A DNA stretch of 64,000 bases from a virus (lineage: Duplodnaviria; Caudoviricetes). Shown here piece by piece: positions 33,208-53,229 of the stretch. The stretch covers positions 22,554-86,553 of the IMG/VR virus record IMGVR_UViG_3300033120_000761, one strand, 5' to 3'. The translations under genes and the position numbers were made by a program. The notes beneath the pieces were generated by a model. That model worked only from the letters and a program-made list of their open reading frames with translations. It searched no databases and was not told the origin of the DNA. Position 1 is the stretch's first letter; each line of letters begins with the position of its first letter.

Positions 33208-33607
33208 TATCAGGAGATGCCACGACATAGAATTAGTTAAAAAGCTACATTTAGAAACGTTCCCTACCGATGAGTGGTATTCGAATCCAAAAGCAGAGTC
33301 ATGGGTTGTGTGGTTGGATAAGAAGCCCGTAGGATTTTGCATGGTATCAATATGGGATGGAAAATATGGTTTTTTGGCAAGGGCAGGATTGTTAAGGGAA
33401 GCTCGCGGTTGTGGGCTACATATGCGTTTGATAAAGGTAAGAGAGTCTTTTTGCCGGAGAAATGGTTTTACTAAAGTTCTCACCTACACTAAGATGGATA
33501 ATATTACATCGAATCGTAACTTACAGAAGGCGGGGTTTTATCTTTATATTCCCCAATATTCGTATGCAGATCCAGACTGTTTATACTGGATGAAGGAATT
33601 GAAATGA
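33188..33607 (+). CDS. GNAT-family acetyltransferase
   Basis: RAGLLREARGCGLHMRLI motif A, NITSNRNLQKAGF motif B; ATG 33188 after GAGGAAGG. Confidence 0.85.
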   Translation: MSEKKFSIRRCHDIELVKKLHLETFPTDEWYSNPKAESWVVWLDKKPVGFCMVSIWDGKYGFLARAGLLREARGCGLHMRLIKVRESFCRRNGFTKVLTYTKMDNITSNRNLQKAGFYLYIPQYSYADPDCLYWMKELK

Positions 33608-33903
33608 AATTAGCAGAAGAAGTTTTAAGCTTATTTGAATCCGCCACATTGGTTTATACAGATGTCCTAACCATCGATCCCGATGCTTCCGATTCTTATA
33701 ACGATGAGGCAATTAGGAAGCAGATCATTAAGGAAATAAAACCATTCAATCTGTCTTTTTTAAAATTTAAAGTTTTGGGAACGGAGGGTGAAGACGGTGC
33801 CGAGGTTGAGATTTCAATCAAGGGAGATCCAGATAAGCTTAAAAAATTCGTTAACAAGTATGCTGGTATGGATAACGTAAAAAATCCGGAAGTATTAAAA
33901 TGA
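33604..33903 (+). CDS. putative internal head protein (leader MKLAEEVLSLFE)
   Basis: shared N-terminal leader. Confidence 0.55.
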   Translation: MKLAEEVLSLFESATLVYTDVLTIDPDASDSYNDEAIRKQIIKEIKPFNLSFLKFKVLGTEGEDGAEVEISIKGDPDKLKKFVNKYAGMDNVKNPEVLK

Positions 33904-34199
33904 GTGAGAAAAATCTATCGGTATGTTTGCCGATTCAAAAGGATAAGCCAGAAGATGTTCAGAGATATATGTTCCATTGTCCGGGATGCCAATATGGTCA
34001 TGCATTTGATGAGAAAACATGGCATTTTAACTATGATCTTATTAAGCCTACCCTCACGCCCAGTTATCTTACAGGGCAAGATAATTTTACAAAAATGAGA
34101 TGCCATTCATATATTAGGGATGGGAAAATCCAATTCCTAGATGATTGCTTCCACTCTTTAAAAGGACAGACGGTTGATTTACAACCTCTGCTAGACTAA
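33900..34199 (+). CDS. DUF6527-like zinc-binding protein
   Basis: FHCPGC..GH...W.FN....PTLTPS...RCHSYIRDGKIQFLDDC.H. Confidence 0.7.
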   Translation: MSEKNLSVCLPIQKDKPEDVQRYMFHCPGCQYGHAFDEKTWHFNYDLIKPTLTPSYLTGQDNFTKMRCHSYIRDGKIQFLDDCFHSLKGQTVDLQPLLD

Positions 34200-34300
34200 T
34201 GAAATTAGCCAAGTCACTTACAGTCTTGATCGAAGGTTATTCAGATTCTCTAGATGGGGCAATTAAAATTTATCACGATATTATTAAGGAAACAGCATGA
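34199..34300 (+). CDS. 33-aa micro-ORF carrying the leader (MKLAKSLTVLIE)
   Basis: hand-translated; TAATG and ATGA overlaps on both sides. Confidence 0.5.
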   Translation: MKLAKSLTVLIEGYSDSLDGAIKIYHDIIKETA

Positions 34301-35211
34301 GTTTAGTTAACGACATCAAAGGTCTATTATCAGAAGAATTCATCACGCTTGAGGGATCTCTAGGTATTCCTCGTGATGAGATGCCTCAGATCGATTCTGA
34401 GCATATTGAACCATTCTTAGATTATCTAAAAGAAATTGGGTGCAATACTTCTGAAGTTCAAAAAGAAGCACATGAATTAAAACCTTCTCAAGCTGAATTA
34501 GATCCTGCTAAGGCAGATAAAATTTGGTCAGATGGCGGAACATTCAAGAATCCTATTTTCACATCTAAAGATGGATATGTTCTAGACGGACACCATAGAT
34601 GGCTTGCAGCTTTGAGAAATGCTGATAAAGAAAAGATGAATTGTATCGAGCTAGATTTAGATGCAAGAGAGGCAATTGAAAAAATGCACGAGTTTGAGCA
34701 TACAAAAGTTAGAGGCATCGATGATAAATTGATTGAGAGTCTTGATCGCCTATTAAGAGAGGATGCTGAAAAACTATCTTCTTTAACCAAAGAAGTTCTC
34801 GGTGAATTAGAAATTGAGTGTGCAGAATTTACTAGAGACTGGCCGGATGAAGTATTCACGGCAGATCTTGGTGAGACTATTTTGGACTCTAGGGGTAAAA
34901 AGATCTCAAAAGAACCCGTAATCCATTCAATTAAAATTCTATCTCCATACGATTTATTATCTCAGTTCTTAGATAATTTTGATAAGCAAATTAATACTAA
35001 AGACGTTAAAGAATCGGACTATGCGACTGTTTTTTCAGGATTGATTGGAAATTCTTATGAACTTCAAAGCTCTACTGACTTCAAAAAAGAAGGTGGTGAA
35101 TCTGAAGGATCAGAAGACATTTTCTTCACAATCAAAATTATTTCATTGAAATATAACCCGCGAGCTGGAATAATTGAGGTTAAGTTCAAAGAAAGTAATT
35201 TTAACCTCTAG
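34297..35211 (+). CDS. ParB/sulfiredoxin-like domain protein, putative internal head protein
   Basis: LKPSQ...PIFTSKDGYVLDGHHRW; leader MSLVNDIKGLLSE. Confidence 0.65.
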   Translation: MSLVNDIKGLLSEEFITLEGSLGIPRDEMPQIDSEHIEPFLDYLKEIGCNTSEVQKEAHELKPSQAELDPAKADKIWSDGGTFKNPIFTSKDGYVLDGHHRWLAALRNADKEKMNCIELDLDAREAIEKMHEFEHTKVRGIDDKLIESLDRLLREDAEKLSSLTKEVLGELEIECAEFTRDWPDEVFTADLGETILDSRGKKISKEPVIHSIKILSPYDLLSQFLDNFDKQINTKDVKESDYATVFSGLIGNSYELQSSTDFKKEGGESEGSEDIFFTIKIISLKYNPRAGIIEVKFKESNFNL

Positions 35212-35221
35212 ATTGTATCCG

Positions 35222-35280
35222 ATGGGGAAACTCATACTTTCAAACGAAAGAATTTTTCACATTCTCTAGGATGAAGGAAA
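35222..35280 (+). pseudogene. degenerate duplicate of the queE 5' end
   Basis: 35241-35280 matches 35911-35950 at 36/40 nt; reads MGKLILSNERIFHIL*DEG versus QueE MSGNTIVLANERIFHTLQGEG. Confidence 0.8.
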
Positions 35281-35295
35281 TAAAAAAGGAAAAAA

Positions 35296-35835
35296 ATGAA
35301 TTTATCAGAGAATGTACTAAAGTTATTAGGGGAAGATTCCACATTCTTCAAACCCGAAGTAGCTAAAAAGGAAGTATCAAAAATATTAGACTCGTTAGCT
35401 AAAGTATCTCATGGTTTAGTTGAAAAATATCAGGGAAGCATAGCAGGAAATAGCTCTAGTCCATCTGCACCCGATACATCTAAATTTATATCTCAACATT
35501 CGGGGATGATTGAATATATGTCTAATGAAGTAGTTAGAGACCGTTTTCCAAGATTCGTTTCGACGGGTGTTAAAATAGGCAGAAATGTCGATATAGAAAC
35601 AACTAAAGCTATAAAGAAAGAATTTATAAAAATGTTTAATAAGTTTCAGTCTAAGTTTGGTGGTGATGGTACTTCGCATATCAGAGTCAGGTTTGGTGAT
35701 GAAGAGTATGGCCCACACTACTCAATTACGCTCATCGACGTTAGTGGATCAAATTGGGGCTGTGTCGGAGTGCAGATAGAGAAAAGGGATGGCAATGGAG
35801 ATCATAATACCAAGATTTCGCATTTATATAAATAA
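35296..35835 (+). CDS. putative internal head protein (leader MNLSENVLKLLGE)
   Basis: 179-aa ORF with shared leader, AAGGA RBS. Confidence 0.6.
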   Translation: MNLSENVLKLLGEDSTFFKPEVAKKEVSKILDSLAKVSHGLVEKYQGSIAGNSSSPSAPDTSKFISQHSGMIEYMSNEVVRDRFPRFVSTGVKIGRNVDIETTKAIKKEFIKMFNKFQSKFGGDGTSHIRVRFGDEEYGPHYSITLIDVSGSNWGCVGVQIEKRDGNGDHNTKISHLYK

Positions 35836-35859
35836 GGAATAACACGAAACTAGCAAAAA

Positions 35860-35874
35860 GTGTAAATTTTACAC
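35860..35874. promoter_or_regulatory. 15-bp palindrome, candidate operator upstream of queE
   Basis: GTGTAAA-T-TTTACAC. Confidence 0.4.
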
Positions 35875-35885
35875 ATAGGTAATAA

Positions 35886-36617
35886 ATGTCCGGGAACACA
35901 ATAGTACTCGCAAACGAAAGAATTTTTCACACTCTCCAAGGTGAAGGAAAGTATATGGGTTATCCATGTACGTTCGTACGTTTATCACTCTGCAATTTAC
36001 GTTGTGAGTGGAGGAATAAAGATGGCAGTTCAACTAGATGCGATACACCATATACCTCGTTTGAACCTGAAAAAAATGATGTAGAAATTGATCAGATTAT
36101 AAAAGAAGTGTCTGATAAAAATTATCATGTGGTTGTTTCTGGTGGAGAACCATTTTTTCAAGCTAATGTTTCAGAGCTAATTAAAGAATTAAGACTTAAT
36201 AATAAATATGTAACCGTTGAAACAAATGGAACTATTTATAGAGAAAATCAAGCAGATTTCATTTCATTATCCCCTAAATTAAAATCATCATCTTCTAATC
36301 CTGAGCGCGGACAAATTCATGATAAGCAAAGAATCAATCTCGGAGCTTTATCTAAGTTTATTGTTAATCACGATTATCAATTTAAGTTCGTGGTTAATAA
36401 TGAGGAAGAAGTCGAAGAAATCTTAGATATTAAAGGAGAGCTTTGGAAATTAACGGGTATCGATATTTCAGAAAAAATTTGGTTAATGCCTCAAGGTGTT
36501 GCTAAAGAACAATTTGATGAAAAGGCAGAATGGATCTGGGATATTTGTAAAAAACACCACTGGAAATATACTGATAGACTGCATATCAGAGTTTATGGTC
36601 AAAGAGTTGGTGTATGA
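35886..36617 (+). CDS. queE: 7-carboxy-7-deazaguanine synthase (radical SAM)
   Basis: FHTLQGEG, CNLRC...CDT cluster motif, SGGEP, VETNGT, SPKL, LMPQG, RLH. Confidence 0.93.
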   Translation: MSGNTIVLANERIFHTLQGEGKYMGYPCTFVRLSLCNLRCEWRNKDGSSTRCDTPYTSFEPEKNDVEIDQIIKEVSDKNYHVVVSGGEPFFQANVSELIKELRLNNKYVTVETNGTIYRENQADFISLSPKLKSSSSNPERGQIHDKQRINLGALSKFIVNHDYQFKFVVNNEEEVEEILDIKGELWKLTGIDISEKIWLMPQGVAKEQFDEKAEWIWDICKKHHWKYTDRLHIRVYGQRVGV

Positions 36618-36874
36618 AATTAGCGAATCACCTATTACTAGTCTTAGCAGAAGCTACCAAATTTCCTACAATAATCAGTTGTTCCAAATCATCCGTAACG
36701 GTGGCATGGAGTAAAGATTCTATTTTCAAATATGAATGTAATGATTATATGAGAGGAATAGCTACCGATAGAATCGATGCGACTTCAAAACTATTGCCAG
36801 TATTAGATAGGAAAATGCTATCTTATATTTCTAAAAATAAAGACACGCTTAACGGAACAAAGGTAGAAGAATGA
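36614..36874 (+). CDS. putative internal head protein (leader MKLANHLLLVLAE)
   Basis: 86-aa ORF with shared leader. Confidence 0.55.
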   Translation: MKLANHLLLVLAEATKFPTIISCSKSSVTVAWSKDSIFKYECNDYMRGIATDRIDATSKLLPVLDRKMLSYISKNKDTLNGTKVEE

Positions 36875-37320
36875 AATTAGCTCAAGAACTAAAAAAATTA
36901 GTTAATGAAGATCTAGATTCTTCTTATGTTGTTTTTGGCTTTGAGGGTAAACCCGATCTTGCTAATGATCATGTTACTCTAATGTATTTCGGTAAAATAG
37001 AGGAAGATAAGGTTCAAGAAATTATCTCTCTAATCGATTCATATATGGAAGAGAATAAACCAAAAGAGTTTGAAGCTGTTTTTGATAAAGTTTCTATGTT
37101 CGGCCCTGAGAATGATGTAAGGGTTTTAGAGGCTAAGGATAAGAACGTCTTTTTAATCAAGCTCAGAGAGCTTCTAGCGCCTTATAATGGCTCTAAGTTT
37201 ACTGACTTCAATCCTCATTATACAAATGATTCATTAGATTCATTTACGGGCATCATCGATAGATTACAATTTTCACAATCAGAATATAAAGAAATAAAAA
37301 CTTGGAATTTAGGAGATTAA
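36871..37320 (+). CDS. 2H phosphoesterase (LigT/2'-5' RNA ligase/Acb1 superfamily), putative internal head protein
   Basis: two HxT motifs (DHVTL, PHYT) with typical spacing; leader MKLAQELKKLVNE. Confidence 0.8.
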   Translation: MKLAQELKKLVNEDLDSSYVVFGFEGKPDLANDHVTLMYFGKIEEDKVQEIISLIDSYMEENKPKEFEAVFDKVSMFGPENDVRVLEAKDKNVFLIKLRELLAPYNGSKFTDFNPHYTNDSLDSFTGIIDRLQFSQSEYKEIKTWNLGD

Positions 37321-37322
37321 TC

Positions 37323-37509
37323 ATGCAAGTAAAAAGCAAAATTCACGGATCAGCATCTATTACTATTAGAGGACAGAGAAGGAGAGGGAGCATTCGCTTA
37401 TAACCAGATCTCTTTCCCTCACGTTGCGGGTCTTAACCCTAGAAACGTAAATATTCAAAATACGCTAACAATTATCCCGCTTGTTACTGAGCCGGTTTCT
37501 GTAGCTTAA
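37323..37509 (+). pseudogene. small gene split by a +1 frameshift at an A5 run (or an assembly indel)
   Basis: AGGAG RBS + ATG CAA GTA AAA; +1 frame continues AKFTDQHLLLLEDREGEGAFAYNQ...VSVA to 37509. Confidence 0.5.
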
Positions 37510-37525
37510 ATAAGGTAATTAATTT

Positions 37526-38182
37526 ATGGATGGAATTAAACTTAAAGATTTAAAAAATATCCCTTCTACTCCGATGGTCGATAACGGCCTGACGAGAGAA
37601 GAGAAGAAAACAAAGATCGAAGAACATTTCAAAGCAATTATGGAAACATTAGGGCTTGATTTAACCGATGATTCTTTGATGGATACTCCTCGTAGAGTAG
37701 CTAAGATGTATGTGGATGAGATCTGCTACGGATTAGATGAATCAAGATTCCCTAAGATCACGATGGTTGAAAATAAATTCGGATCTCAGATGGTAACGGA
37801 AGCAAAAATTACCGTGAACTCATTATGCGAACATCACTTCATTACTATTTGTGGCTTTGCTCACATCTCATATATTCCAAAGGCAAATGGAAAGGTGATT
37901 GGATTATCTAAGATGAATCGAATCGTTGAATACTTTTCGGCAAGACCTCAAGTTCAAGAAAGACTAACTGAGCAAGTTCAAAAATGTTTGGCAGAGCTTT
38001 TAGGGACTGAAGATGTGGCCGTGGTAATTGATGGAGTCCACTTTTGCGTAAGAGCAAGAGGAGTAAAAGACGGATCTTCTGTAACAAGAACTTCTTCTTT
38101 GGGTGGAAAATATCTGAGTGATGCGGTTGTAAGATCAGAATTTATGAACGCAATTCCTACGATTGCAGACTTTAAATTATAG
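37526..38182 (+). CDS. folE: GTP cyclohydrolase I
   Basis: DTPRRVAKMY, SLCEHH, GLSK..R, QVQERLT, HFCVRARGV. Confidence 0.97.
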   Translation: MDGIKLKDLKNIPSTPMVDNGLTREEKKTKIEEHFKAIMETLGLDLTDDSLMDTPRRVAKMYVDEICYGLDESRFPKITMVENKFGSQMVTEAKITVNSLCEHHFITICGFAHISYIPKANGKVIGLSKMNRIVEYFSARPQVQERLTEQVQKCLAELLGTEDVAVVIDGVHFCVRARGVKDGSSVTRTSSLGGKYLSDAVVRSEFMNAIPTIADFKL

Positions 38183-38190
38183 GAATGAAG

Positions 38191-39240
38191 ATGTTATCGA
38201 GGCAAATTTTAAAACTGTTAGAAGATGCCTCGGAGCCTTGGTTATCCTATTTAGATGATAAGCCTAAGACTAGAGAGTATGTTGTAAAAGCAATTGAAGA
38301 TCTGGATGCAGGCTTAGAAAATAAGGTGATCTGGAATACCGAATTTCTAAATATAAAATCTAGATTAGGATCTCTTTGTTATGATTTATTTCATGATGTG
38401 AAAAGAGATGCGATTAAGAAAGTCACAATGACACCGGAAGAATTAGCATATTTTGAAGAAAAGATTTATATGCTCGCGGTTCAAGCTCCAAGAATGATTC
38501 TAAAGAAAATAGGATCAGATAATAATCCAGGCCTAAAGTTTATGGTTGAGACGCTGATTAAACCAATAGCGGATCTTCTGGAAAAAATAAATAAATTAAA
38601 AGAATTTGTTCAGAAGGGAAGAAAGCCTAACCCTAATGCTAAGACTAAGCCTGTTTTTGATCCCGGATATTCTTCTAAGGAAGATACTGAAAAAGTAAAA
38701 AATATCTATGAAGAATTATTAAAAGAATGGCTTCCTAAACAAATAGCTGAGATTGAAGATCAACAAGAAAAAATGATTGTTGATCTTCAAAAGTTATTAA
38801 GGGATGGTACGCCTGCTGAAAAATCTAATAAGAGATCTCACCCAGGAAGAATTTACTTTGACTTATCTGATAGGTTAGAAAAAGATTATAAGAAGAAAAT
38901 AAAAGAAAAGGCCGTGAAAGAGGCGAAAGCTATCCAAGAAGCTTTTACGATTAAGAATATTAAAAAAGTCACAAGTATTATTTCTAATAAGGGTGATTTA
39001 AAAGATTCTAAAATTGTAAAAACGTCTTCTAGGGACGGTATCATGGAAGGGATTATAAAATTTCTTTTTAGTGATGGATCTTCATTCTCGGTGAAGAATC
39101 AGGTAGTGGTTGTTTGGGATACTCGTAAACCATTTTATAGATTCCCAACGACTTTCATTGATATTGAAATGCCAGATAAGGTAAAGCATAAAATGAAATC
39201 CGAAGAATGGATGAACATTAATTTCAAAAGAGTAGCGTAA
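38191..39240 (+). CDS. putative internal head protein (leader MLSRQILKLLE)
   Basis: 350-aa ORF with leader; start 38185 or 38191. Confidence 0.6.
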   Translation: MLSRQILKLLEDASEPWLSYLDDKPKTREYVVKAIEDLDAGLENKVIWNTEFLNIKSRLGSLCYDLFHDVKRDAIKKVTMTPEELAYFEEKIYMLAVQAPRMILKKIGSDNNPGLKFMVETLIKPIADLLEKINKLKEFVQKGRKPNPNAKTKPVFDPGYSSKEDTEKVKNIYEELLKEWLPKQIAEIEDQQEKMIVDLQKLLRDGTPAEKSNKRSHPGRIYFDLSDRLEKDYKKKIKEKAVKEAKAIQEAFTIKNIKKVTSIISNKGDLKDSKIVKTSSRDGIMEGIIKFLFSDGSSFSVKNQVVVVWDTRKPFYRFPTTFIDIEMPDKVKHKMKSEEWMNINFKRVA

Positions 39241-40469
39241 TGAAATTAGCAGAGGAATTAATTAGATTGATACCCGTAGATGAAGTTATAAATGCTTCTA
39301 AGCTTAGGCATTCTACTCGCATGGTTTTTAATAATCCTGATTTTGATCGATATACGGTTTTAAATCAAGGTGAAACTACCAAGGCCGTAGTAGTTAATAA
39401 TAAAGAGCAGTATCGGATAATCGAATTAACCACTAATCAAAATTTAGCATCATCGAATATGATGATTTTTAATGATGATAAAAATTCTGCTATTGAATAT
39501 CTTTTAGATGGCTATTATGAAGATGAATTGGTTGCACAAACCAAAGCTTTCTATATGCGCCACAGCCTATCTGGTGGCGACGTTCCTGCTAACAAATTAC
39601 CTAAAATAAAAATAAAAAGTGATTCAAAGTGGATTAAGAAAGAAAAGCTATATCTTTGGTTGATCAAAGAAGGTATTCCAGATGTTCAAATTAAGATCGT
39701 GTTTCCTGACCTTATAAATTTAGATTCTGCTGAGACATCAATATCTCATGGGGATTTTACCCTTATTGGATTCGCCGAAGATAAACATAAATTTTTATTA
39801 TCCGTAATAGATGATTCAACAAAGCTGTTAAATAAGGCAGGGTTTAAAGATATTTCTTATGGAAAAGTCTATCTGGCCACGAAGAAAAACTCTTCAACTA
39901 CTAGAACCCTAGCAGACTACATTTCTAATGATGATAGTATGCGCGTTTTTGATATAAAAACTTCTCAAGAACAATCCGTATTAACTTTCACTCATGAGCT
40001 TGGGCATAGATATTATTATAAGCGACTCTCTCCCCTATCTAGAGAATTGATCGGAAAAGAATTTATCAAAAATATGCGCCTTGATATGGAAGATCAAAAA
40101 GAAGTAAATAAACAAATCAGAGGTTCTATTCCTGATTATAAAGTCGGGGATAAAATAAAAGATAAGAAATATGGCGATCTTGTTTTTTCTGGTGTCGGGG
40201 GTGTTAATCTTAACTCCAGAAAGATGGTTCTGAAATTCCACTTATTAAAAAATAATGAGAAGACCAATAAAATTTTAACTTTTGATAGTATGCTCGATGC
40301 TATACTGTATTTTAATAAAGATTCGCTAAAAGGTAAAAATAAAGCTAATCCTTGGATTCCCACAGCTTACTCTAAAACCAGTGCAGTTGAATGGTTCGCG
40401 GAAATTTTCTCATACTCTGTTGTAGAGAAAAATAAAGAGATCTTAGATTGGATAAAAGGGCTTAAATAA
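39240..40469 (+). CDS. zincin-like metallopeptidase, putative internal head protein
   Basis: THELGH (HExxH) and downstream EWFAE; leader MKLAEELIRLIPVDE. Confidence 0.7.
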   Translation: MKLAEELIRLIPVDEVINASKLRHSTRMVFNNPDFDRYTVLNQGETTKAVVVNNKEQYRIIELTTNQNLASSNMMIFNDDKNSAIEYLLDGYYEDELVAQTKAFYMRHSLSGGDVPANKLPKIKIKSDSKWIKKEKLYLWLIKEGIPDVQIKIVFPDLINLDSAETSISHGDFTLIGFAEDKHKFLLSVIDDSTKLLNKAGFKDISYGKVYLATKKNSSTTRTLADYISNDDSMRVFDIKTSQEQSVLTFTHELGHRYYYKRLSPLSRELIGKEFIKNMRLDMEDQKEVNKQIRGSIPDYKVGDKIKDKKYGDLVFSGVGGVNLNSRKMVLKFHLLKNNEKTNKILTFDSMLDAILYFNKDSLKGKNKANPWIPTAYSKTSAVEWFAEIFSYSVVEKNKEILDWIKGLK

Positions 40470-40484
40470 TAAAAAGGAATATCC

Positions 40485-40709
40485 ATGGAAGGACCCATCA
40501 GTTCTAGAGTTTATGTAGAAGCTTCACCCGAGGCAATCGAATGTTGGCAACAACGAGTCAGAGATCTGATTTATCTTGAATCGCTGGATGCTTCAAAATT
40601 CAAAACATACGATGAGCGAGCAACCCATTACTTAAACCTGTCAACTCTAGCAATCAATAAGAAACTGCTAACAAGTATTGGATTCGACGTGAGAGATCTG
40701 CTGAATTAG
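40485..40709 (+). CDS. hypothetical protein
   Basis: 74-aa ORF, AAGGA RBS. Confidence 0.55.
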   Translation: MEGPISSRVYVEASPEAIECWQQRVRDLIYLESLDASKFKTYDERATHYLNLSTLAINKKLLTSIGFDVRDLLN

Positions 40710-40715
40710 TGGTTT

Positions 40716-40743
40716 TTGCGATATTCTCAATAAGTGTTAAAAT
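40716..40743 (+). promoter_or_regulatory. sigma70-like promoter with extended -10
   Basis: TTGCGA-N16-TAAAAT with TG extension. Confidence 0.55.
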
Positions 40744-40778
40744 CGTAGCTACTTCCACTTTGAAATTCGGAGCTACAG

Positions 40779-41570
40779 ATGCGTATAAAGTTCAATAAGC
40801 TTATCATCAAGTTATTGTGGGCCACTCGTCCTTTGATTACTTGGTTCGATCATACTTTCACTATAAAATCAGCAATTAAAAAAGTCACAGGTGATGATTA
40901 TTACGTGCATCGTGATCTCGTTGTTAAGGGGATGGTCTTCATTACCGATGCTAACGGGCATGGATCGAATATCATTAATCCATCTAGAAATGGGAGACAT
41001 GGGGCAATTTATTTTGGAAGAGGCCTTGAGACTAAGATTAAACAAGTTTTAACTAAGCTCAATACCGAAATAACAGAGCTAAAATACAATCCAGGAAATG
41101 ATAAAGAAAGGGCCGAGCTTTTAAAGAAAGCAGAGGATAAATTCTTTAGGATCCATAAAGTATTCAATGACTATAAGATCAATGATGAAATCTGCTATGT
41201 AATCGAGTCTGTAGAGGCGGGAGTTAAGCCAACTAACCTTGTTACTTTCATGACTTCAAAAGATTTATTCATGGCATTTACGCCAAACTTCTATTCCTCG
41301 CCAGAGGAAAAATTACAATTAATGAATGATGCGGCAGATTTTTCCGTAGAAGATCTTGGGCTTCCTTATGACTATGGGTTTGAGGATGGGGATGATGCAA
41401 AATATTGTTTCGAAGTCCCTGCCGATAATTATATCAAAGCAAAGCCAGGATTAACCCTGAAAAAAGAGAAAGTACTGGGGCATCCGTTCTATCTTTCGAC
41501 GACTTGGATTGAGGATGGCCATAAATGGTCAAAGACAATACATCTCCCAATTGCAAATAAACTTTTGTAA
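40779..41570 (+). CDS. permuted papain-like (YiiX/YebB NlpC/P60) cysteine hydrolase
   Basis: RHGAIYFG...VIESV..GV...LGLPYDYGF....KYCFEV. Confidence 0.75.
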   Translation: MRIKFNKLIIKLLWATRPLITWFDHTFTIKSAIKKVTGDDYYVHRDLVVKGMVFITDANGHGSNIINPSRNGRHGAIYFGRGLETKIKQVLTKLNTEITELKYNPGNDKERAELLKKAEDKFFRIHKVFNDYKINDEICYVIESVEAGVKPTNLVTFMTSKDLFMAFTPNFYSSPEEKLQLMNDAADFSVEDLGLPYDYGFEDGDDAKYCFEVPADNYIKAKPGLTLKKEKVLGHPFYLSTTWIEDGHKWSKTIHLPIANKLL

Positions 41571-41873: not shown

Positions 41874-41892
41874 ATAAAAGGATAACGTCAAG

Positions 41893-43662
41893 ATGGGTCA
41901 TTTTAATATAAATCCTAAGATTCTTTCATCGAATATCTCTGATATGCGTGAGGGATTCATCAGGAAGTCAAATGCTCAAGCCCCATTTTCGGGGGTCCCT
42001 TTAATTAACGAATATGCCAATTTTATGAAAGAGAGGGCAATGGACTCTCAGCTGGATTCGACTATTAAGGGATTCAATAATCAATTCGTTTTAACCGCAT
42101 ACTCTGCTGCTTATCAAAAAGCCTCTGAAAGATTAAGAACAATCATTCAGGCCGTAGATACGGTTAGAAATTTCTATTTAGTTGATGTTATTTTATCTCA
42201 ATTAACTGAAGATGCTCTTAGTTCTAGAAATGGATCAGAAGAGATCTTTAGATTTTCATCTAAGAACTTAGAGGTTCAAGATGAATTGAACTTTCTAAAA
42301 GAGAAATTATCCCTTGACCAGATCATTGAAAACATCACTCCTGACTTATGCGCCTATGGTGAATACGTTATGGAAACAGATATCAATGAGCAAAGAGGTG
42401 TTATCGGTATTTACGATAATATCGATCAAGGAACGGTAGTTTCACTTACTCAAAATGGTGAGATCGAAGGTTATTTAGCGATTGATGAATTAACAGGGGT
42501 TATTAAAAAACGCCATATTTCTGATTACGTTAAATTCACTATCGGTGGCCAAAGGATTAAGGTAAATTTTGATAAAACAGGCGATATGATTGCCCGTCAA
42601 AATCCTTTACTTAGATCATACGTTAAAAAAGTCCCAAAATTCTTAAGAGTCGGTAAGTCTTATATCTTCCCTTTTATCGGAAAGATCAAAGAACTTGAGG
42701 TTCTTGAAAAACTAGTCCCTGCAACAAAACTCAATAAGCTGTCTCAAGGTAACTTGATCGGTTTACCTGTGCCTGAGAACTACTCATTAGACGCTGGTAT
42801 GGAGGCTTCTCGCCGTGTTGAGGGGATGATCAATAAGAAAGTAATGGTTGATCCATCTTTAGGGGAAATCACCGTAGAAGCGATCCTATCAACTGCCGGC
42901 CGTAACAGGGTTATTCCTGTTTTTGGTGAGAAAGGAAGATTAGATAAGCTGGATTTTAAAGGTGATGAGGCAGATGATCTTTTCTCAAATACAAAAGATA
43001 TGCGAGACATCATCCTGGACTCAGTCGGAGTTCCTTCAGAAATCATTTTCAAGAGTGATGGCGGGAATAAATCAGATATTCTAAAAAGATATGCAAAATA
43101 TCTTAGAAAATTAAAGAAGATTCAAAAGTCTCTAGCAGAAGGATTAAAGCAATTAGCTATTATTCACTTGGTTAATAAGGGAATCACTTTTGAAGAAAAA
43201 GATATCGAAGTAAACTTCTTAAATACTCTAATTGAGATCGATAACCTTGATCGTTTAGAGCACGCAGATATCACGTTATCGATGTTAACTAATGCTAAGA
43301 ACTTCTTTGTTGAGCTTGCAGCGGATGATTCTGCTTTTGCTTCGCAGGTTGTGATGGATAAAGTTTCTGAATACCTTGAATCAAACTTAAAAACTATTGG
43401 GTTATCCGATGCTTTAAGAACTCAGGCAGAAGGTGGTCCATCGGCAGAGAAAAGACAAGATGATCTTTCAATGGAAGGAGATGCCGCAGATCCGTTTGCT
43501 GATGATACAGAAACAGGGAATGAAGCTCCACCACAACAAACATCAGTAACTGGTGATGTTGAAGAGCCAACTGAAGAACAAAAAGAAAAGTATCCACACA
43601 TTAAATACAAGATGGGAGAGTCTGTTTATGCGAAACGCAAAAGGTTTATTAGAAAAGTTTAG
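41893..43662 (+). CDS. portal protein (T4 gp20-like)
   Basis: 589 aa, first gene of head module, DLCAYGE-like motif, acidic low-complexity C-terminal tail. Confidence 0.75.
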   Translation: MGHFNINPKILSSNISDMREGFIRKSNAQAPFSGVPLINEYANFMKERAMDSQLDSTIKGFNNQFVLTAYSAAYQKASERLRTIIQAVDTVRNFYLVDVILSQLTEDALSSRNGSEEIFRFSSKNLEVQDELNFLKEKLSLDQIIENITPDLCAYGEYVMETDINEQRGVIGIYDNIDQGTVVSLTQNGEIEGYLAIDELTGVIKKRHISDYVKFTIGGQRIKVNFDKTGDMIARQNPLLRSYVKKVPKFLRVGKSYIFPFIGKIKELEVLEKLVPATKLNKLSQGNLIGLPVPENYSLDAGMEASRRVEGMINKKVMVDPSLGEITVEAILSTAGRNRVIPVFGEKGRLDKLDFKGDEADDLFSNTKDMRDIILDSVGVPSEIIFKSDGGNKSDILKRYAKYLRKLKKIQKSLAEGLKQLAIIHLVNKGITFEEKDIEVNFLNTLIEIDNLDRLEHADITLSMLTNAKNFFVELAADDSAFASQVVMDKVSEYLESNLKTIGLSDALRTQAEGGPSAEKRQDDLSMEGDAADPFADDTETGNEAPPQQTSVTGDVEEPTEEQKEKYPHIKYKMGESVYAKRKRFIRKV

Positions 43663-44908
43663 CAAACTAAGTATCGGAACTAAAAAAGTAATATCGGAGT
43701 CAGCCGAAATTTATGCCAATCTTTATTCAGTTATGGTTGGATTAAAAAACGATAAGACTGGAGACAATACTGCCACTATCATTGTTGATGGCGGTCAGTT
43801 GATGGATAAATTCGAGGCTCAACATTTAAAAGGTGTTGATGGTGCGATAGCTTATGTAAAATCCCAATACAAACTTTCACTAAGTTCGTCAGAAGAAAAA
43901 GAATTAAGATCTGAGCTTAAGGAACTTTTAAAAAGAAAGGGTGTAGCAAATGAATCAGATGATGATTCAACAGACGATCTTGAATCTGCAATCGATGATG
44001 TTGAAGATATGGACGATGAATACACATTCTCAGAAGATGCGATAGCTGATAGGCGCGGATTAAGATTAGTATTTGAAGATTTAGACAAATATCATAGGTT
44101 ATTTATATCTAAGCTTAAGTTGGCTGGAAAAATAATGAAGCGCATGGAAGTCGGAGTTGAAATCGACGATAAATATATTGATGATATCTCTGAGCAATTA
44201 GAAGATATATTGAGTCATGTTGAAATGGCAATGAATGATGGGAAAGTTACGGAAGGTATGCATTACCACACTCGTATTCGTCAACTTGAAGCCGCGATTC
44301 ACCCTAAGAAAGTAAAGCTTGCTGTTAGAGAATCAAAATCAATGCTGGAAGCAATCATGGATGATAAACACCCATCCGCTAACCCATGCTCAGAAGACGA
44401 TATGAAGATCCTTATAGATGCTCAATCTAAAATGGAATCAATCATTGAAGGACTACAAAAAGTTCGCGTAGCTAAAAGAAAGCGTAAAAACGAAGACGAT
44501 GAAGAAACATTTGATGATGAGCAAGATGCGGCAGCAGATGAATTACCAGATGCAAGTGAAGGATTAGCTTTAGCAAAACGTTTAACTACTTTTGTTGAAT
44601 CATTAGGCCCTATTTCTGAATTAGCTGGTGATGGTCTAGATGCTTTAAGAAAGAAAATCGATAAGGCAGAAGAACTAGCAGATAAGCTTTATACTAAATA
44701 TTACGATTACCGCCAAGAAGGCAGGAAAGTAATGGCCAAGAAGAAAGGCGTTCGTAGAACTAAAGAACAACTTGCTAAAGATAAAGCTGAGAGACTTAAA
44801 TTTAGAGCACAATCAGATAAGATGCACGATGCTTACACTAAAGCTCAACAGTATGTATCAGATTTCAAAGCTCAATTAAAAGCTGCAAAAGAAAAGGCTG
44901 CAAAGTAA
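43628..44908 (+). CDS. prohead core / internal head protein
   Basis: ATG 43628 after GGGAG; acidic coiled coil with many (L/V/I)-x-E sites; between portal and protease. Confidence 0.55.
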   Translation: MRNAKGLLEKFSKLSIGTKKVISESAEIYANLYSVMVGLKNDKTGDNTATIIVDGGQLMDKFEAQHLKGVDGAIAYVKSQYKLSLSSSEEKELRSELKELLKRKGVANESDDDSTDDLESAIDDVEDMDDEYTFSEDAIADRRGLRLVFEDLDKYHRLFISKLKLAGKIMKRMEVGVEIDDKYIDDISEQLEDILSHVEMAMNDGKVTEGMHYHTRIRQLEAAIHPKKVKLAVRESKSMLEAIMDDKHPSANPCSEDDMKILIDAQSKMESIIEGLQKVRVAKRKRKNEDDEETFDDEQDAAADELPDASEGLALAKRLTTFVESLGPISELAGDGLDALRKKIDKAEELADKLYTKYYDYRQEGRKVMAKKKGVRRTKEQLAKDKAERLKFRAQSDKMHDAYTKAQQYVSDFKAQLKAAKEKAAK

Positions 44909-45549
44909 TGATTTCAAAATCTTTATTAAAATTATTAAAAGAAGACGGGCCGGACAATGATCTAGGCCTTGTCTCTTTATTAGCGGATGCTGGGATTTCG
45001 GAAGAAGTTCAAGTAGACGATGTTACCGTGGATGATGAGGGAGATGCTGTAGTTACCTTCGTTAATGACGATGATGAGCTCGTCGTAGTTTTCACTGTTG
45101 ACGAAGAAATTCCGATGGCAGTAATTATCGAAGATGATGATGAGGAAGATGAAGTAGAATACTTCGATCTATCTGATCTTAATCCACCCATGAAAGACGG
45201 TAAAATTGATTTCTCAATTCCAATGAGTGATTGGTTAGATGTAGATACTCTTCTAGATATTCTAGATGGGGAAGATGAATTTGAAGACGAAGAAGCCGTA
45301 TCAGAAACATCAGTCTATGTTGTGAGAGGAGGGCAACGAGTAAAAAAGCCCTTAGTGAGAAGAAAAAGAAAAAAGCTTCTCACCTCAGCGAGAAAATTCG
45401 CAATCAGAAAAGCCGTAAGAAGTAGACGAAGAACTCAGGCCCAAGCGAATAGAAAGAGAAAAAGATCTCTACAGATTCGTAAAAGAGCAAAACTTAAAAC
45501 GAATCGTAATTCAAGAATGAAGGTGGCAGGAACTACATCACATCTTTAA
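44908..45549 (+). CDS. prohead core protein (T4 gp68-like)
   Basis: acidic N-half, basic tail AQANRKRKRSLQIRKRAKL resembling gp68 RAQRKRKKALKRRKAL; leader MISKSLLKLLKE. Confidence 0.6.
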   Translation: MISKSLLKLLKEDGPDNDLGLVSLLADAGISEEVQVDDVTVDDEGDAVVTFVNDDDELVVVFTVDEEIPMAVIIEDDDEEDEVEYFDLSDLNPPMKDGKIDFSIPMSDWLDVDTLLDILDGEDEFEDEEAVSETSVYVVRGGQRVKKPLVRRKRKKLLTSARKFAIRKAVRSRRRTQAQANRKRKRSLQIRKRAKLKTNRNSRMKVAGTTSHL

Positions 45550-46288: not shown

Positions 46289-47014
46289 ATGAAATTCTTA
46301 AACGTTTTAGACGTTCAAACTTTTCTACTAGAGATAAACGCCATTGATAAGGTCATAGGCGTTTCTAAAGATTATCAACCGACAAATGAGGAGATTGCTT
46401 CTTTCATTAAAGGTAGAAATCCTTTAGTCTCTAAATTAAAAGACTATAGAAAATCTTCTGATCAAAAAGCCAATTGGCGCGGTAACAGAACCAAGATGAT
46501 GAAAGGGATCAAAGCATTCCATAAGTCAGTCGAAGGTAAAAGATTCCATCGTCGCCTCGGCCGTTTCATGGCCACCAGAATAACTAGACCTAAATCTTCT
46601 AATGAAAATTATCAATCGCTTTTGGATAAACAAGAACATCTGAAAGGATTAAATGCGGTTAAAACCCATATGTTCGTGGAACTAGAATATTTCCATCAAG
46701 TCCAGGAACAGGTAGAATTAGAAGAAATGTTGATTGAATATGCAGTTCCTTTATTCCAAGTCATTGAAAAAAAGATAATTACTGATGAGGAATTGGATGA
46801 TGATGAACTTGTATTTCTGATGGATCTGACAGAGCCAGATGCCTTATTAGATGCTTTAAGCACAGAATCGGGCGTTGAATTTGCAGAAATTCAAAAACTC
46901 TGGAATACTATCTCATGTACATTAGAAGATGGCGGGCTTGCAAAAGATGATTCAAAGTTTTATCCTACTTTGATTACTGATCTAAAAAAGCAATTGGGTT
47001 TAGCAAATGACTAA
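46289..47014 (+). CDS. hypothetical head-module protein
   Basis: 241-aa ORF directly upstream of the protease. Confidence 0.65.
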   Translation: MKFLNVLDVQTFLLEINAIDKVIGVSKDYQPTNEEIASFIKGRNPLVSKLKDYRKSSDQKANWRGNRTKMMKGIKAFHKSVEGKRFHRRLGRFMATRITRPKSSNENYQSLLDKQEHLKGLNAVKTHMFVELEYFHQVQEQVELEEMLIEYAVPLFQVIEKKIITDEELDDDELVFLMDLTEPDALLDALSTESGVEFAEIQKLWNTISCTLEDGGLAKDDSKFYPTLITDLKKQLGLAND

Positions 47015-48386
47015 AAAGTTAAATGATTTAATTGACCCGAAACTTAAATTCGAACTCGTAGAGTCGAGTGAAGTCGATGGTAAAAATATTCTAGCCAAAG
47101 TCAAAGGACAATTTTTTTGTCCCGATGCTAATTCTAGAAACGGCAGATTCTACCCTAAAGAACTTTGGGAAAAAGTAATTTCTTCACCAAATGTTCAAAG
47201 AATGCTTAAGAAAAGATTAATGTGGGGAACTGTAGGCCATGATGCTGAATTAGGTGAAAAAGCTATTCGCGAAGGTATTACATCTCACGTTATGACATCT
47301 ATCTTTATTGATGATCAAAATAGAGGTATGGGTGAAGCCCTTATCCTTGATACTCCGGTCGGAAGAATCCTGAATACATTATTAAGAGCTGGTTGTGAAC
47401 TCTATGTTTCATCTAGAGCTAATGGTGATTTTGCAGGAAAACATAATGGCGTTCCTGTGGTTAATCCGCAAACTTATGATTTAGTAGGTTGGGACTTCGT
47501 TATCGATCCTGGATTTTTAGATGCCAATCCTACAATCGCTGAATCATATAACTCAGCACTTTCAAAATTAGAAGAATCAGAAAATAACCTTGGAGATACT
47601 AAGATGGAAAAAGAACTAGTTGAACACATCATGAAGGAGAATAACTCTCAGAAGACTGACATTGCTAAATTAACAACGGAAGTTGTTGATCTAAAAGAAA
47701 ACAATGGCGCTCTATTCGATGAGAACAAACACCTGAAAGAACAACTTTCTACTTTTGAAGAAGTAAGTGCAAAGCTTAAAAAATATGAAGAAATGGGTGA
47801 GCCAGAAGACGTTGAAAAAGCTCTAGAGCTTGGTGACGAAGCTGCTGACGAACTTGAAAAATACAAGTCTATGGGATCGCCAGACGAAGTAAAAGAATCT
47901 CTAACAAAAGCAAAAAACTATATTGCTAAATTCCATGCAAACATCGGAACTTATAAAGTAGTTGAATCTGCTCTTATTAAAGCAAAAAAATTCCAAGAAT
48001 CTGTTGCTGAAATCGGAACAATCTCTGAGATCAAAGGAATCTGTAAAAGATTCAATGTTCTTTTAGAAGAAGTTGAGCAAACAGAACAAGACCAGATCGC
48101 ATCTGATTTAGCGGCGAAATTAGAAATCGACGTTGAAAAAGTAAAAGAACTTCTAGCAAAAGATCTATCTGTTGAAGACATTGAAAAAATGTATGCTACA
48201 GTAGAAGAGAAGTTCAAAAAAGCAGCTCCGGCACCAGCTCCTAAAAACGAATCTAAACCAACAGATAAGTATAAGAAGCCTGCTGTTACTGAAGCTAAGA
48301 AAGAAACTGAAGAAAAACCATACGAATCAAAAATCGTTGGTAGAACTTTAGTTGATAAGCTTAACGAGAGCTACGGAACTAAATAA
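47007..48386 (+). CDS. prohead protease (T4 gp21-like) fused to C-terminal scaffold domain
   Basis: NSRNGRFYP, GTVGH, SH, LDTPVG, VSSRANG, DFVIDPG; about 260-aa coiled-coil extension. Confidence 0.88.
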   Translation: MTKKLNDLIDPKLKFELVESSEVDGKNILAKVKGQFFCPDANSRNGRFYPKELWEKVISSPNVQRMLKKRLMWGTVGHDAELGEKAIREGITSHVMTSIFIDDQNRGMGEALILDTPVGRILNTLLRAGCELYVSSRANGDFAGKHNGVPVVNPQTYDLVGWDFVIDPGFLDANPTIAESYNSALSKLEESENNLGDTKMEKELVEHIMKENNSQKTDIAKLTTEVVDLKENNGALFDENKHLKEQLSTFEEVSAKLKKYEEMGEPEDVEKALELGDEAADELEKYKSMGSPDEVKESLTKAKNYIAKFHANIGTYKVVESALIKAKKFQESVAEIGTISEIKGICKRFNVLLEEVEQTEQDQIASDLAAKLEIDVEKVKELLAKDLSVEDIEKMYATVEEKFKKAAPAPAPKNESKPTDKYKKPAVTEAKKETEEKPYESKIVGRTLVDKLNESYGTK

Positions 48387-48494: not shown

Positions 48495-49913
48495 ATGATT
48501 GACGAAAGCCTACAAAACGCAATGGACGCACAAAACGCTCAAAAGTATTTCACGAAATATAAGAAATACTGTGAAGCATTCGAGAAATCGGTTGTTTCTA
48601 GAGCAATCAACCTTTCTGAACACCACATCGTTCAATTAGGTAAACAACTTGAAGCGTTCGAACTTTACGCTAAAATTTGTGAAAACTCAGGGTCTTTAAA
48701 CACTCTTGGGGAAATTCCAAAAATCGCTCTAGATGTAATCACTGCTGTTATGTCTAACTCTGTTCTTCCAGTAATCGCGTCTACTCAAGTAATTGAGCAA
48801 CAAAGACAAATGATTTACTTCAAGAACCTAAGAGCTGACAACACTAAGGGTAACCTTACTGCTGGTCAAGTTATCTTAGACCCAAAAACTGGTATGAAGA
48901 CTCCAAAAGGATATGCTTCAAACCGTCTTAACGGTCTTGAGATGGCAACAACTGCTCTTGCAACTGTTGACTACACATTCACTCTTCCTGCTCTTCCAGT
49001 ACAATCTCAATTCATGAAAATTGAAGTTGAGTCTGACGCTACTGTTTTCGCAGAAGATGTTGGTCCTCGTGGAGCTGACAAGAACATCGGTACTCTTTTA
49101 GGTGCTGGCGTTTCAGGAACTGTTAACTATACTTCTGGTGTAGTAGTTCTTAAGTTTGCTGTTCAACCAACTGCTGCTAAGAAAATTTATGTTTCTTACC
49201 AACAGAACATGGAACTAGCTGCTGACCTTCCAAAAATGACTTCTTTCCTTGATCAGACAGATGTTGAAGCTCAGGCTTACGTTCTTAAGACTGTAGTTGG
49301 TATGTTCCAACAATATGCTCTTAAGAAAACTTTCGGTGACTCTGCTCTTGAAGATACAGCAATGGATCTTACAAAAGAGATCAACGCTGAAATCGGTGGT
49401 GACTTCATTTCTAAATACCTTGTGGCTGCAATGGGATCTACTCAGTTCTCTCTAACAGCTCCAGCGGGTGTTTCTGAAAAACTACACAGAGAATCATACG
49501 CGTTCCGTATGTCAGATGCTGAAGCGGTAATGCTTGGAAACGCTGGCCGTGGAACTATCAAAACTATGATCGTTGGACGTGAGCACGCTGCTCTAGTTCG
49601 CGGACTAGATGGATTCAACTTACTATCAGATGGTGGTTCAGTTGGTCCTCATATTTTTGGTACATACAAAGGGATTACTTATATCCGCGTACCAGAAGAT
49701 GCTCTTCTTGGTGCTAAAAAAGGGATCGCGCTTTACACGGGATCTTCTGCAATTGAATCGGCTGGTGTTTACTGCCCATTCATGCCGTTGACTGTAAGAC
49801 AAGCTCCGGCTAACAACAACAACCCTCTACAAGACCAAACTGTAGCGGCAACGTTAGCGGCTACGAAAGTAGTTGTTCCTCAGTTCATCACAGCTTTTGA
49901 CGTAGTAGTTTAA
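48495..49913 (+). CDS. major capsid protein (T4 gp23-like)
   Basis: 472 aa after protease/scaffold, highly biased codon usage, EINAEI and VYCPFMPL motifs, followed by a terminator. Confidence 0.88.
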   Translation: MIDESLQNAMDAQNAQKYFTKYKKYCEAFEKSVVSRAINLSEHHIVQLGKQLEAFELYAKICENSGSLNTLGEIPKIALDVITAVMSNSVLPVIASTQVIEQQRQMIYFKNLRADNTKGNLTAGQVILDPKTGMKTPKGYASNRLNGLEMATTALATVDYTFTLPALPVQSQFMKIEVESDATVFAEDVGPRGADKNIGTLLGAGVSGTVNYTSGVVVLKFAVQPTAAKKIYVSYQQNMELAADLPKMTSFLDQTDVEAQAYVLKTVVGMFQQYALKKTFGDSALEDTAMDLTKEINAEIGGDFISKYLVAAMGSTQFSLTAPAGVSEKLHRESYAFRMSDAEAVMLGNAGRGTIKTMIVGREHAALVRGLDGFNLLSDGGSVGPHIFGTYKGITYIRVPEDALLGAKKGIALYTGSSAIESAGVYCPFMPLTVRQAPANNNNPLQDQTVAATLAATKVVVPQFITAFDVVV

Positions 49914-51134: not shown

Positions 51135-51452
51135 ATGAATTTAGCAAAATCTCTTATGGATACATTGAATGAAGAAATCGATCTCGTATCGGATGTTCAG
51201 AACATTCAAAAGGTTATTCAAAAAGAGTTTCAAAGAACTAAACTAAACAAGAAAATTTCTAAAGTTACTCTCCCGCAAGAAAAGAAAGTATTATTTAATA
51301 GATCTTCTGGCGGCGGTAATGTTGAGATTTCTTCCCCAGGAACTAAAGTTGAAGTTGAGGGTGGAGAAATAATTGAAGGAAATTTTGTAATATACTTATC
51401 ATTTAGAGATGAACGAGTTACGATTTCATATAACTTTTTGAAGGGAAAATAA
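51135..51452 (+). CDS. putative internal head protein (leader MNLAKSLMDTLNE)
   Basis: shared leader. Confidence 0.55.
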   Translation: MNLAKSLMDTLNEEIDLVSDVQNIQKVIQKEFQRTKLNKKISKVTLPQEKKVLFNRSSGGGNVEISSPGTKVEVEGGEIIEGNFVIYLSFRDERVTISYNFLKGK

Positions 51453-51453
51453 C

Positions 51454-51783
51454 ATGACTAAAAAATTAGCAGAAGCTTTAATTGAAAGCTACAAAGTAAA
51501 TGAATCTGAAATGGAGCCAGAAGTTAAGCCTGAACCTGAAGTAGAGGTTGAGGAAGCAGAAGTTGAGCCAGCCGTTGAAGCTGAAATCGATACAGATGAT
51601 GCTCAATTACTTGCTGTAGTAAACGTTTACTTTAAAAAGATCAATGCAAAACCTGCTGCTACTAAAGCTGATAAACTTGAGAAATTAGTTCACAGACTAA
51701 TCAACTCAATGATTGAAATGCCTCGTGGTGAAAAAGAAGCACGCATTGCCCTTAAATTAGCAATCAAAGAAATCAACGCGTAG
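51454..51783 (+). CDS. putative internal head protein (leader MTKKLAEALIE)
   Basis: leader variant, acidic EVE linker. Confidence 0.5.
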   Translation: MTKKLAEALIESYKVNESEMEPEVKPEPEVEVEEAEVEPAVEAEIDTDDAQLLAVVNVYFKKINAKPAATKADKLEKLVHRLINSMIEMPRGEKEARIALKLAIKEINA

Positions 51784-52120: not shown

Positions 52121-52723
52121 ATGCCCGTAGCTTTAAGACAAATTAAAAAGGAATTGGAATCAGATCGCAATAAGCGTGGAAGGTTTCCTGATGGGGATTA
52201 TAAATTCACTCCTCCTAATATGGTGTCGAGAAAGTTTACTGAATATAAAAAGTTGAAAGTTACTAAATTAACTTCATCTCCAAAGCCAGGATTAAACGCG
52301 GTTGCTTATACTGCCGTCGTGGCTTCTGAGAATAGAGACGGGGAGAGTGCCGGAATAAAGTATAAAACGACTATCCAATTTCACGATATACAGTTCAGAG
52401 ATAAAAAGTCTGAGAGCTTGTATAAAAATGAATTTGAATACATGAACGATGGAAAGTTAAAAAAAGTTTATTATCGCACGGCCAATGTGAATGATAATAA
52501 AGTTATGCTGAAATGTTCTTGTAAAGACTTCCAGCATCGTTTTGAAACAGAATTATATGAGGCAGATGCATTAATCGGTGCTCCAAGAAAGTATCGTAGA
52601 AAAACTCCTCCATGGCCTGTGGGAAGACCTTATGCAAATACGACTGAGAAGCTGGGTATTTGCAAACATTTATATTCAATGTTTGAGCACTTAAAAGCTA
52701 AAGAATTACTGAAGGAAAAATAA
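52121..52723 (+). CDS. SWIM-type zinc-finger protein
   Basis: KCSCKDF...GICKHL (CxC...CxH). Confidence 0.7.
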   Translation: MPVALRQIKKELESDRNKRGRFPDGDYKFTPPNMVSRKFTEYKKLKVTKLTSSPKPGLNAVAYTAVVASENRDGESAGIKYKTTIQFHDIQFRDKKSESLYKNEFEYMNDGKLKKVYYRTANVNDNKVMLKCSCKDFQHRFETELYEADALIGAPRKYRRKTPPWPVGRPYANTTEKLGICKHLYSMFEHLKAKELLKEK

Positions 52724-53229
52724 TGAAAAACTTATCTCAAGAAGTTATAGAAGTATTGAACGAGGTTAACGTTCCCAGAAACGCCCTTTGGTTCGAAGTC
52801 TCTATTAGAGATGGCGGATCTCGTGCATCTGTGCGACTGACTAAGGTTGGCGGTAAATGGAAAGAGATTGTTCTAGATAATGAAGATGATGTAAATATCG
52901 GCGGTAAAACATATCAAAGTTATTTAAAACCTGCCGATATTTTAACATGGTTAAGGGGAGACTTTGATGATGTTCAAGTTACGTCGTTTGATGATGTATC
53001 TAATGATGACGAAGAACAAGACGAATCTTTATCCGAAGCAGATGTTAAACTTAATCTTAAGAATAATATTAGGCGTGATATTTATGCCATTGGTGATGGT
53101 ATTGAGGGATTACTTAATGATCTAATCGAAACGAACAAGGATAGAGAATTAGCAAAAAAAGTTGCTAACCTCGGCAATGCGTATGATGATTTAAGATCTC
53201 ATTTGAATAAAAAATATAATTGGGATTAA
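52723..53229 (+). CDS. putative internal head protein (leader MKNLSQEVIEVLNE)
   Basis: shared leader. Confidence 0.55.
   Translation: MKNLSQEVIEVLNEVNVPRNALWFEVSIRDGGSRASVRLTKVGGKWKEIVLDNEDDVNIGGKTYQSYLKPADILTWLRGDFDDVQVTSFDDVSNDDEEQDESLSEADVKLNLKNNIRRDIYAIGDGIEGLLNDLIETNKDRELAKKVANLGNAYDDLRSHLNKKYNWD

Follow-up and report, generated by a model that had tools for sequence, protein, structure and literature searches.

The 64,000-nucleotide window analysed here is part of an 86.5-kb virus entry (IMG/VR record IMGVR_UViG_3300033120_000761, estimated to be 73% complete), and at 36871..37320 on the + strand it encodes a 149-amino-acid (aa) protein whose motifs predict a catalytically intact, unusually compact 2H phosphoesterase of the HxT/HxT type. 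The first 13 residues of this protein are a portable amphipathic tag, separable from the enzyme and lying outside it. The 2H gene is one case of a larger phenomenon, as about 12 tagged open reading frames (ORFs) are found at 33604–53229. The best reading, and in our judgement a probable one, is that the 2H protein is packaged via its leader and injected, since the leader is separable and shared, an S77 protease is encoded, and the clade to which the enzyme belongs is fused to MuF and polyvalent carriers.

The 2H domain and its place in the superfamily

The 2H ORF starts MKLAQELKKLVNED and comprises the leader (aa 1–13) and a compact 2H phosphoesterase core (aa ~18–147). The original prediction, made from the bare sequence, had picked out DHVTL and PHYT in this ORF and assigned it to the 2H phosphoesterases, and on both counts it was correct. 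The first HxT motif, H34-V-T36 (36970..36978, + strand), lies within a LigT-like HVTLMYFG, and the second, H116-Y-T118 (37216..37224, + strand), within FNPHYT. Taken on the single sequence, the evidence for 2H identity is weak but consistent: the Pfam family LigT_PEase is passed narrowly (24.1 bits, cut-off 23.3), 2_5_RNA_ligase2 stays below its cut-off (24.9 bits vs 27), and a phmmer search of the PDB returned Pyrococcus LigT-like proteins at ~1e-3, with YjcG aligned over both motifs. Searched exhaustively with HMMER, 1.84 billion representatives yielded 132 relatives at E<=1e-3. Across 107 aligned short relatives H34 and H116 are invariant, T36 is kept in 106 and T/S118 in 104, with further conserved positions at F77-G78, V85-L86, L98-R99 and P115. 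When compared with the PDB, a profile built from 85 family sequences matched LigT-like chains with an E-value of 6e-10 and drCPDase with 6e-4, and structural comparison revealed a two-lobed alpha+beta fold common to the 2H ORF and solved 2H enzymes. Identical copies of the 149-aa protein are found on contigs of 124–127 kb.

Two subfamily identities were tried and rejected. For Acb1, PF23474 gave no match to the 2H ORF at E<=1 (positive control: T4 gp57B, 2.7e-60, 202.7 bits) and reached the family members P0031 and P0099 at E 0.09–0.15 only; when the family profile was aligned to T4 Acb1 with hhalign, the probability was 37% and the match was confined to the second motif. The structure comparison with Acb1 and LigT that the original prediction had suggested confirmed the shared 2H fold, and the closest structural neighbour was not Acb1 (Z 7.9 to FBB1 Acb1; 7.5 to phage PDE-9). 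For ThpR, the equivalog model TIGR02258 matched at 5.9e-8 over profile positions 38–126 of 180, scoring 32.8 bits vs a cut-off of 65.7. The two motifs point in different directions: the first resembles LigT HITLKFLG, and the second-motif context F-x-P-H-x-T is more like that of Acb1 (YTPHIT). On these comparisons we treat the 2H ORF as a member of an uncharacterised viral 2H clade. Cluster look-ups for this clade give metagenomic sources only. Nothing was found by tblastn of the 2H ORF and its relatives P0031 and P0023 against 50,697 cultured-phage records; blastn of the 2H region against cultured phages recovered a folE fragment only; PHROGs held no match for the 2H ORF; no close relatives were found in IMG/VR, whether searched by protein or by a 10-sequence alignment; and a single metagenome scan for relatives returned short or distant loci only.

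The known cellular enzymes E. coli ThpR (5ldm/4qak), Pyrococcus PH0099 (1vdx/2fyh) and B. subtilis YjcG (2d4g) have 170–185 aa, whereas the core here has ~130; their Pyrococcus members carry a second motif HITLGR, where this family has PH[VY]T[TN]D, and unlike them the present protein is viral and leader-bearing. Acb1 (T4 gp57B; FBB1 7t26/7t27; PF23474) is, like the 2H ORF, a small phage 2H protein (152 aa) with a similar second-motif context, Y-x-P-H-[IV]-T, and the 2H ORF may likewise degrade immune nucleotides. In T4 itself (AF158101, 73591–74410) the Acb1 gene 57B adjoins ipI, the gene for internal protein I, and the Acb1 N-terminus is not CTS-like, i.e. does not resemble the T4 capsid-targeting sequence (CTS).

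The LigT-like appearance of the first motif, HVTLMYFG against the pattern HITLKFLG, speaks for a ThpR/LigT-like 2',3'-cyclic phosphodiesterase which, packaged or not, would heal RNA ends left by anticodon nucleases or other metal-independent RNases. We regard this explanation as unlikely, and RNA end healing as the function of the protein, however achieved, as hardly less so. The score against TIGR02258 lies well under its cut-off, the core is ~45 aa shorter than ThpR, and phage 2H domains of this kind never occur with RNA ligases in the survey of Iyer et al. (PMC5512222). In the 73%-complete record we detected none of the RNA ligase and RtcB families PF09414, PF09511 and PF01139, the PF09511 search having been run without a working control. 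The original prediction had offered RNA repair as an alternative role for the enzyme; it was not borne out, being weakened because the ligase partner is absent from the available 73% of the genome.

A leader shared by unrelated proteins

The leader of the 2H protein, MKLAQELKKLVNE (36871..36909, + strand), is predicted to be helical over residues 2–12 and ends in V-N-E; we propose that it is a capsid-targeting propeptide that is cut after Glu13. In the AlphaFold2 model it forms a separate helix (residues 2–12) of lower confidence (pLDDT 73 for residues 1–10), and the first core strand begins at residue 17. Among the 132 relatives, most of which lack the leader, ~55 representatives have no N-terminal extension, with matches starting at query residue 18–20, and ~14 representatives bear an amphipathic leader ending in aliphatic-x-E. 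Such leaders are seen in the closest relatives, which are 37–62% identical (MKLAEQVKKLVNE, MKLAKQTTNLILE, MKLWQQLKKLCE, MKLAEELKKMIKE, MTLASKVIKLHE, MTKLASKILSMFE and similar), and also in more distant members, e.g. MTLAQRILQLLE and MNKSQQLMSIIE; the leader ends among 2H homologs are VNE, ILE, LCE, IKE, LHE and MFE. On a short metagenomic contig (L008:752-2322), this 2H domain is present in a 294-aa ORF that begins MGAPLNSKLIKALNRVLAE, and the ORF after it begins MNHLITALRLVLAE; a similar tag may thus be in use in another lineage.

Within the genome, the leader recurs on 11 other ORFs. We scored residues 2–14 of the 2H ORF against all 139 other ORF N-termini with BLOSUM62: a score of >= 20 was reached by 7 of the 139, as compared with 0.42% of internal windows (~0.6 expected, Poisson P ~3e-6). 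The nine best-scoring N-termini all fall between 33604 and 53229, within the head module or directly before it. Ten of the 12 leaders end in L-x-E, the 2H ORF and the ORF at 39240 having V-x-E instead. The DNA upstream of the leaders is not conserved and their codon usage differs, and so the similarity is selected at the level of the peptide and does not reflect a DNA repeat. The bodies of the tagged ORFs are unrelated to one another.

All tagged ORFs are on the + strand. Upstream of the 2H gene these are a 99-aa ORF (33604..33903, MKLAEEVLSLFE), a 33-aa mini-ORF (34199..34300, MKLAKSLTVLIE), a 304-aa ORF with a ParB-like domain of the type found in giant phage proteins (34297..35211; phrog_2859 at 1.8e-24, and phrog_11358, a 3431-position profile), a 179-aa ORF (35296..35835, MNLSENVLKLLGE) and, directly upstream, an 86-aa ORF (36614..36874, MKLANHLLLVLAE). 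They are followed downstream by a 351-aa ORF (38185..39240, MKMLSRQILKLLE) and a 409-aa ORF with a HELGH (HExxH) motif (39240..40469). Several tagged ORFs sit within the head module. One, of 213 aa (44908..45549), has an extremely acidic middle with D/E runs and a strongly basic C-terminal tail with R/K runs, a composition that makes its product look like a core or DNA-associated internal protein. Further along lie a 105-aa ORF (51135..51452, MNLAKSLMDTLNE), a 109-aa ORF with a leader-like start, MTKKLAEALIE (51454..51783), and a 168-aa ORF (52723..53229, MKNLSQEVIEVLNE).

The protease that we propose removes the leaders is encoded at 47007..48386 (+ strand). Matches to Peptidase_S77 (36.5 bits, cut-off 27) and phrog_207 (2.2e-28) identify it as a T4 gp21-type prohead protease. 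Its protease domain, at residues ~18–218, is followed by a C-terminal extension of ~240 aa that is acidic, coiled-coil-like and rich in L-x-E sites; the extension suggests a protease-scaffold fusion. A homolog of this protease in a Rhizobium phage is likewise long (503 aa). The neighbouring gp23-like major capsid protein (48495..49913, + strand; Gp23, 26.9 bits, cut-off 24.4) has L-G-E at residues 71–73, likely its maturation cleavage site, and its Pfam Gp23 match begins at residue 75. A T4-like portal (41893..43662, + strand) is recognised through a weak Portal_T4 match, and portal, protease and capsid protein together mark the head module as T4-type. By the capsid protein, the nearest cultured relatives are Rhizobium Kleczkowskaviridae (40% identity), and no relatives of that protein were found in IMG/VR. 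The octamer TATAAATA of T4 late promoters shows no enrichment in the sequence (10 found vs 7.4 expected).

The leader could have another meaning altogether. The 2H protein could be an ordinary cytoplasmic 2H phosphodiesterase (PDE) whose N-terminal helix serves as a substrate lid or does something else, for instance binds a partner or provides a translation context. The lids of viral 2H PDEs are flexible and located at the N- or C-terminus, that of PDE-9 being residues 1–15 (Doherty et al. 2025), and the lower model confidence of the leader is what has been reported for lids. A 2H-specific lid, however, leaves unexplained why the same leader is found on ~11 non-2H proteins. Moreover, most family members lack an N-terminal extension, the genes with the tag are grouped in or beside the head module, the phage encodes an S77 protease, and fusions to MuF and polyvalent carriers occur among the relatives. 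We consider this explanation unlikely.

The immediate neighbours of the 2H gene are a mixture of tagged and untagged genes, in which queE (35886..36617, + strand; 7-deazaguanine pathway) and the GTP cyclohydrolase I gene folE (37526..38182, + strand), both untagged, are interleaved with the leader-tagged ones. The location of the 2H gene between queE and folE would be in keeping with an accessory enzyme of the 7-deazaguanine pathway, acting e.g. on a pterin or nucleotide intermediate that bears a phosphate or cyclic phosphate. The FolE-QueD-QueE-QueC route, however, requires no phosphodiesterase; the que genes are untagged, whereas the genes interleaved with them all carry the leader; and the relatives in four other loci (L001–L004) are not adjacent to que genes. 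We find this explanation extremely improbable. The 2H gene and folE are separated by 205 nt (37321–37525) for which there is no Rfam match and whose predicted fold does not go beyond that of shuffled controls (z 0.28).

On its other side the 2H gene adjoins the 86-aa ORF, whose stop overlaps the 2H start (ATGA). A 228-aa metagenomic relative (P0003) has a homolog of this ORF (34% identity, E 2e-9) fused in frame to the 2H domain, and the junction holds an internal leader-like stretch, ...LDINELLSED. The 86-aa product may be a functional partner of the 2H enzyme, or may belong to a polyprotein that the prohead protease processes; an Atlas search with it gave no usable match. A GNAT gene is located at 33158–33607 and a C92 papain-like amidase at 40779–41570. 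Because a tagged ParB-like ORF, a nearby GNAT and a tagged HExxH ORF are found together, the tagged and neighbouring genes (GNAT, ParB-like, 2H, HExxH) resemble a polyvalent protein that has been split up. A gene at 31840–33207, flanked by queD and the tagged array, encodes a protein of 455 aa in which a calcineurin-like metallophosphatase domain is combined with an HNH-associated repeat.

Proposed packaging, injection and substrate

Support for delivery that is independent of the leader comes from relatives of the 2H protein that are joined to carriers known or predicted to be packaged. The clade is fused to Phage_Mu_F in three proteins (P0089, P0110, P0113) and to ART-PolyVal in another (P0090); a 964-aa protein (P0099) has 2H together with two ParB_N domains and GNAT, and a further one (P0070) has 2H fused to GNAT. 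Foldseek against viral models located 2H domains inside actinophage proteins annotated 'capsid morphogenesis' and 'structural'. The 149-aa protein itself stands alone, without MuF, portal or polyvalent-protein fusion. Leaderless relatives at IMG/VR loci are found among genes of replication and nucleotide metabolism, for UvsX-like recombinase, MazG-like pyrophosphohydrolase, exonuclease and ssDNA-binding protein, and these contexts fit one enzyme that is expressed early or pre-packaged.

These fusions have a precedent in the work of Iyer, Burroughs, Anand, de Souza and Aravind (2017, PMC5512222), who found 2H domains as parts of polyvalent proteins and fused to MuF or portal, never with RNA ligases, and predicted that such domains are injected and act as RNases or as degraders of defence or signal nucleotides. 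Fusions of this kind occur in the clade of the present protein, for which the same delivery prediction applies, and similarly no RNA ligase partner was found in the 73%-complete record. The difference is in the carrier, which is covalent in their proteins, whereas here a stand-alone domain has a proposed cleavable tag of 13 aa.

The precedent for such a tag comes from T4. There the cleavage site of gp21 follows L/I-x-E, and a CTS formed by the first 10 residues of the internal proteins suffices to load foreign proteins; T4 relatives have variable sets of internal proteins as anti-defence cargo (PMC9026906, PMC3012670). As in the T4 internal proteins (IPI, IPII, IPIII, Alt; Mullaney and Black 1996, reviewed in PMC9026906), a short putative propeptide with a hydrophobic-x-Glu end is found here on unrelated proteins, and the genes for an S77 protease of the gp21 type and a capsid protein of the gp23 type lie nearby. 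The systems differ in that the tag sequence is not that of the IPI N-terminus (MKTFKEF...), that ~12 genes are tagged, and that the cargo includes a predicted 2H enzyme, a class not known among the T4 internal proteins.

We infer targeting, cleavage, injection and substrate along the following lines. By analogy with the T4 CTS, the tag would let the 2H protein dock in the prohead's scaffolding core. The gp21-type S77 protease would then cut the tag after aliphatic-x-Glu, here V-N-E13, and the mature enzyme of ~136 aa would be retained in the head and enter the cell with the DNA. There it would most likely hydrolyse a small nucleotide immune messenger (a cyclic or 2'-5'/3'-5' linked oligonucleotide) via a 2',3'-cyclic phosphate intermediate, and would do so before any phage gene is expressed. 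For this scenario as a whole, i.e. a compact 2H enzyme that is addressed to the capsid, injected and active on an immune messenger, we see the chances as evenly balanced. The original prediction had already called the protein leader-tagged and possibly pre-packaged. The tag has stood, recurrent and separable, and together with the gp21-type protease and the MuF and polyvalent fusions it makes pre-packaging plausible; packaging itself is a deduction from these features.

As to function, degradation of immune messengers is a serious candidate to which we give somewhat less than an even chance. Doherty et al. 2025 (bioRxiv 10.1101/2025.08.21.671373) reported 75 phage 2H PDEs whose lineages are separate from that of Acb1 and found that diverse members cleave immune messengers, with specificity following structural group. 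Like the present protein, their PDE-9 (Burkholderia phage BCSR5, 9q2y/9q2g) is outside the Acb1 lineage and has its catalytic histidines intact. A role as an RNase is quite unlikely, and the weight left over from these functions and RNA end healing goes to something else. In its specific form, that of an injected takeover effector like eukaryotic Usb1 that cuts or trims host RNA and leaves 2',3'-cyclic phosphate ends, it draws on the proposal of Iyer et al. for MuF- and portal-fused 2H domains, made in parallel to PBECR RNase fusions (PMC5512222). The likeness to Usb1, however, is only that of the common fold (8–12% identity), and the 130-aa core has no RNA-binding extension; we judge this form very unlikely.

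Several observations weigh against a packaged messenger-degrading enzyme. In both sequence and structure the 2H ORF is closer to ThpR/LigT than to any enzyme proven to degrade messengers, and two of the structural groups of Doherty et al. 2025 cleaved 0 of 18 messengers (bioRxiv 10.1101/2025.08.21.671373). The predicted cleavage site of the 2H ORF itself is V-N-E, as opposed to L/I-x-E in T4, the mature protein is acidic (isoelectric point 4.5), and the head module of the nearest cultured relative, a Rhizobium phage, contains no similar leaders. Lastly, the phage is uncultured, and the virion presence and processing of its 2H protein are predicted from the genome.

Possible implications for phage counter-defence

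Part of this picture is already known: packaged 2H domains have been predicted (Iyer 2017), the diversity of viral 2H proteins has been surveyed (Doherty 2025), and 2H identity as such is ordinary. What appears to be new is a stand-alone 2H protein with a T4-like, putatively cleavable capsid tag, as one of ~12 tagged cargo proteins in a phage that is only distantly related to cultured ones. More tentatively, and with a chance that we put clearly below even, the array could represent a polyvalent-style arsenal split into ~12 capsid-addressed cargo proteins that share a cleavable 13-aa leader read by the gp21-type protease, of which the 2H enzyme would destroy immune messengers at time zero. Should packaging fail to be confirmed, the 2H protein would simply add to the surveyed viral 2H diversity.

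The known messenger-degrading phage enzymes (Acb1, Apyc1 and other 2H PDEs) are thought of as made after infection. If our reading is true, a capsid-borne enzyme would act before phage gene expression, as a time-zero counterpart of Acb1, which acts only once expressed, and this would change the view of timing in CBASS, type III CRISPR, Pycsar and Thoeris defences. The leader would also provide a simple sequence rule by which virion cargo could be predicted in a group of uncultured phages whose heads are of the T4 type, and could serve as a portable tag with which proteins are loaded into capsids of this kind.
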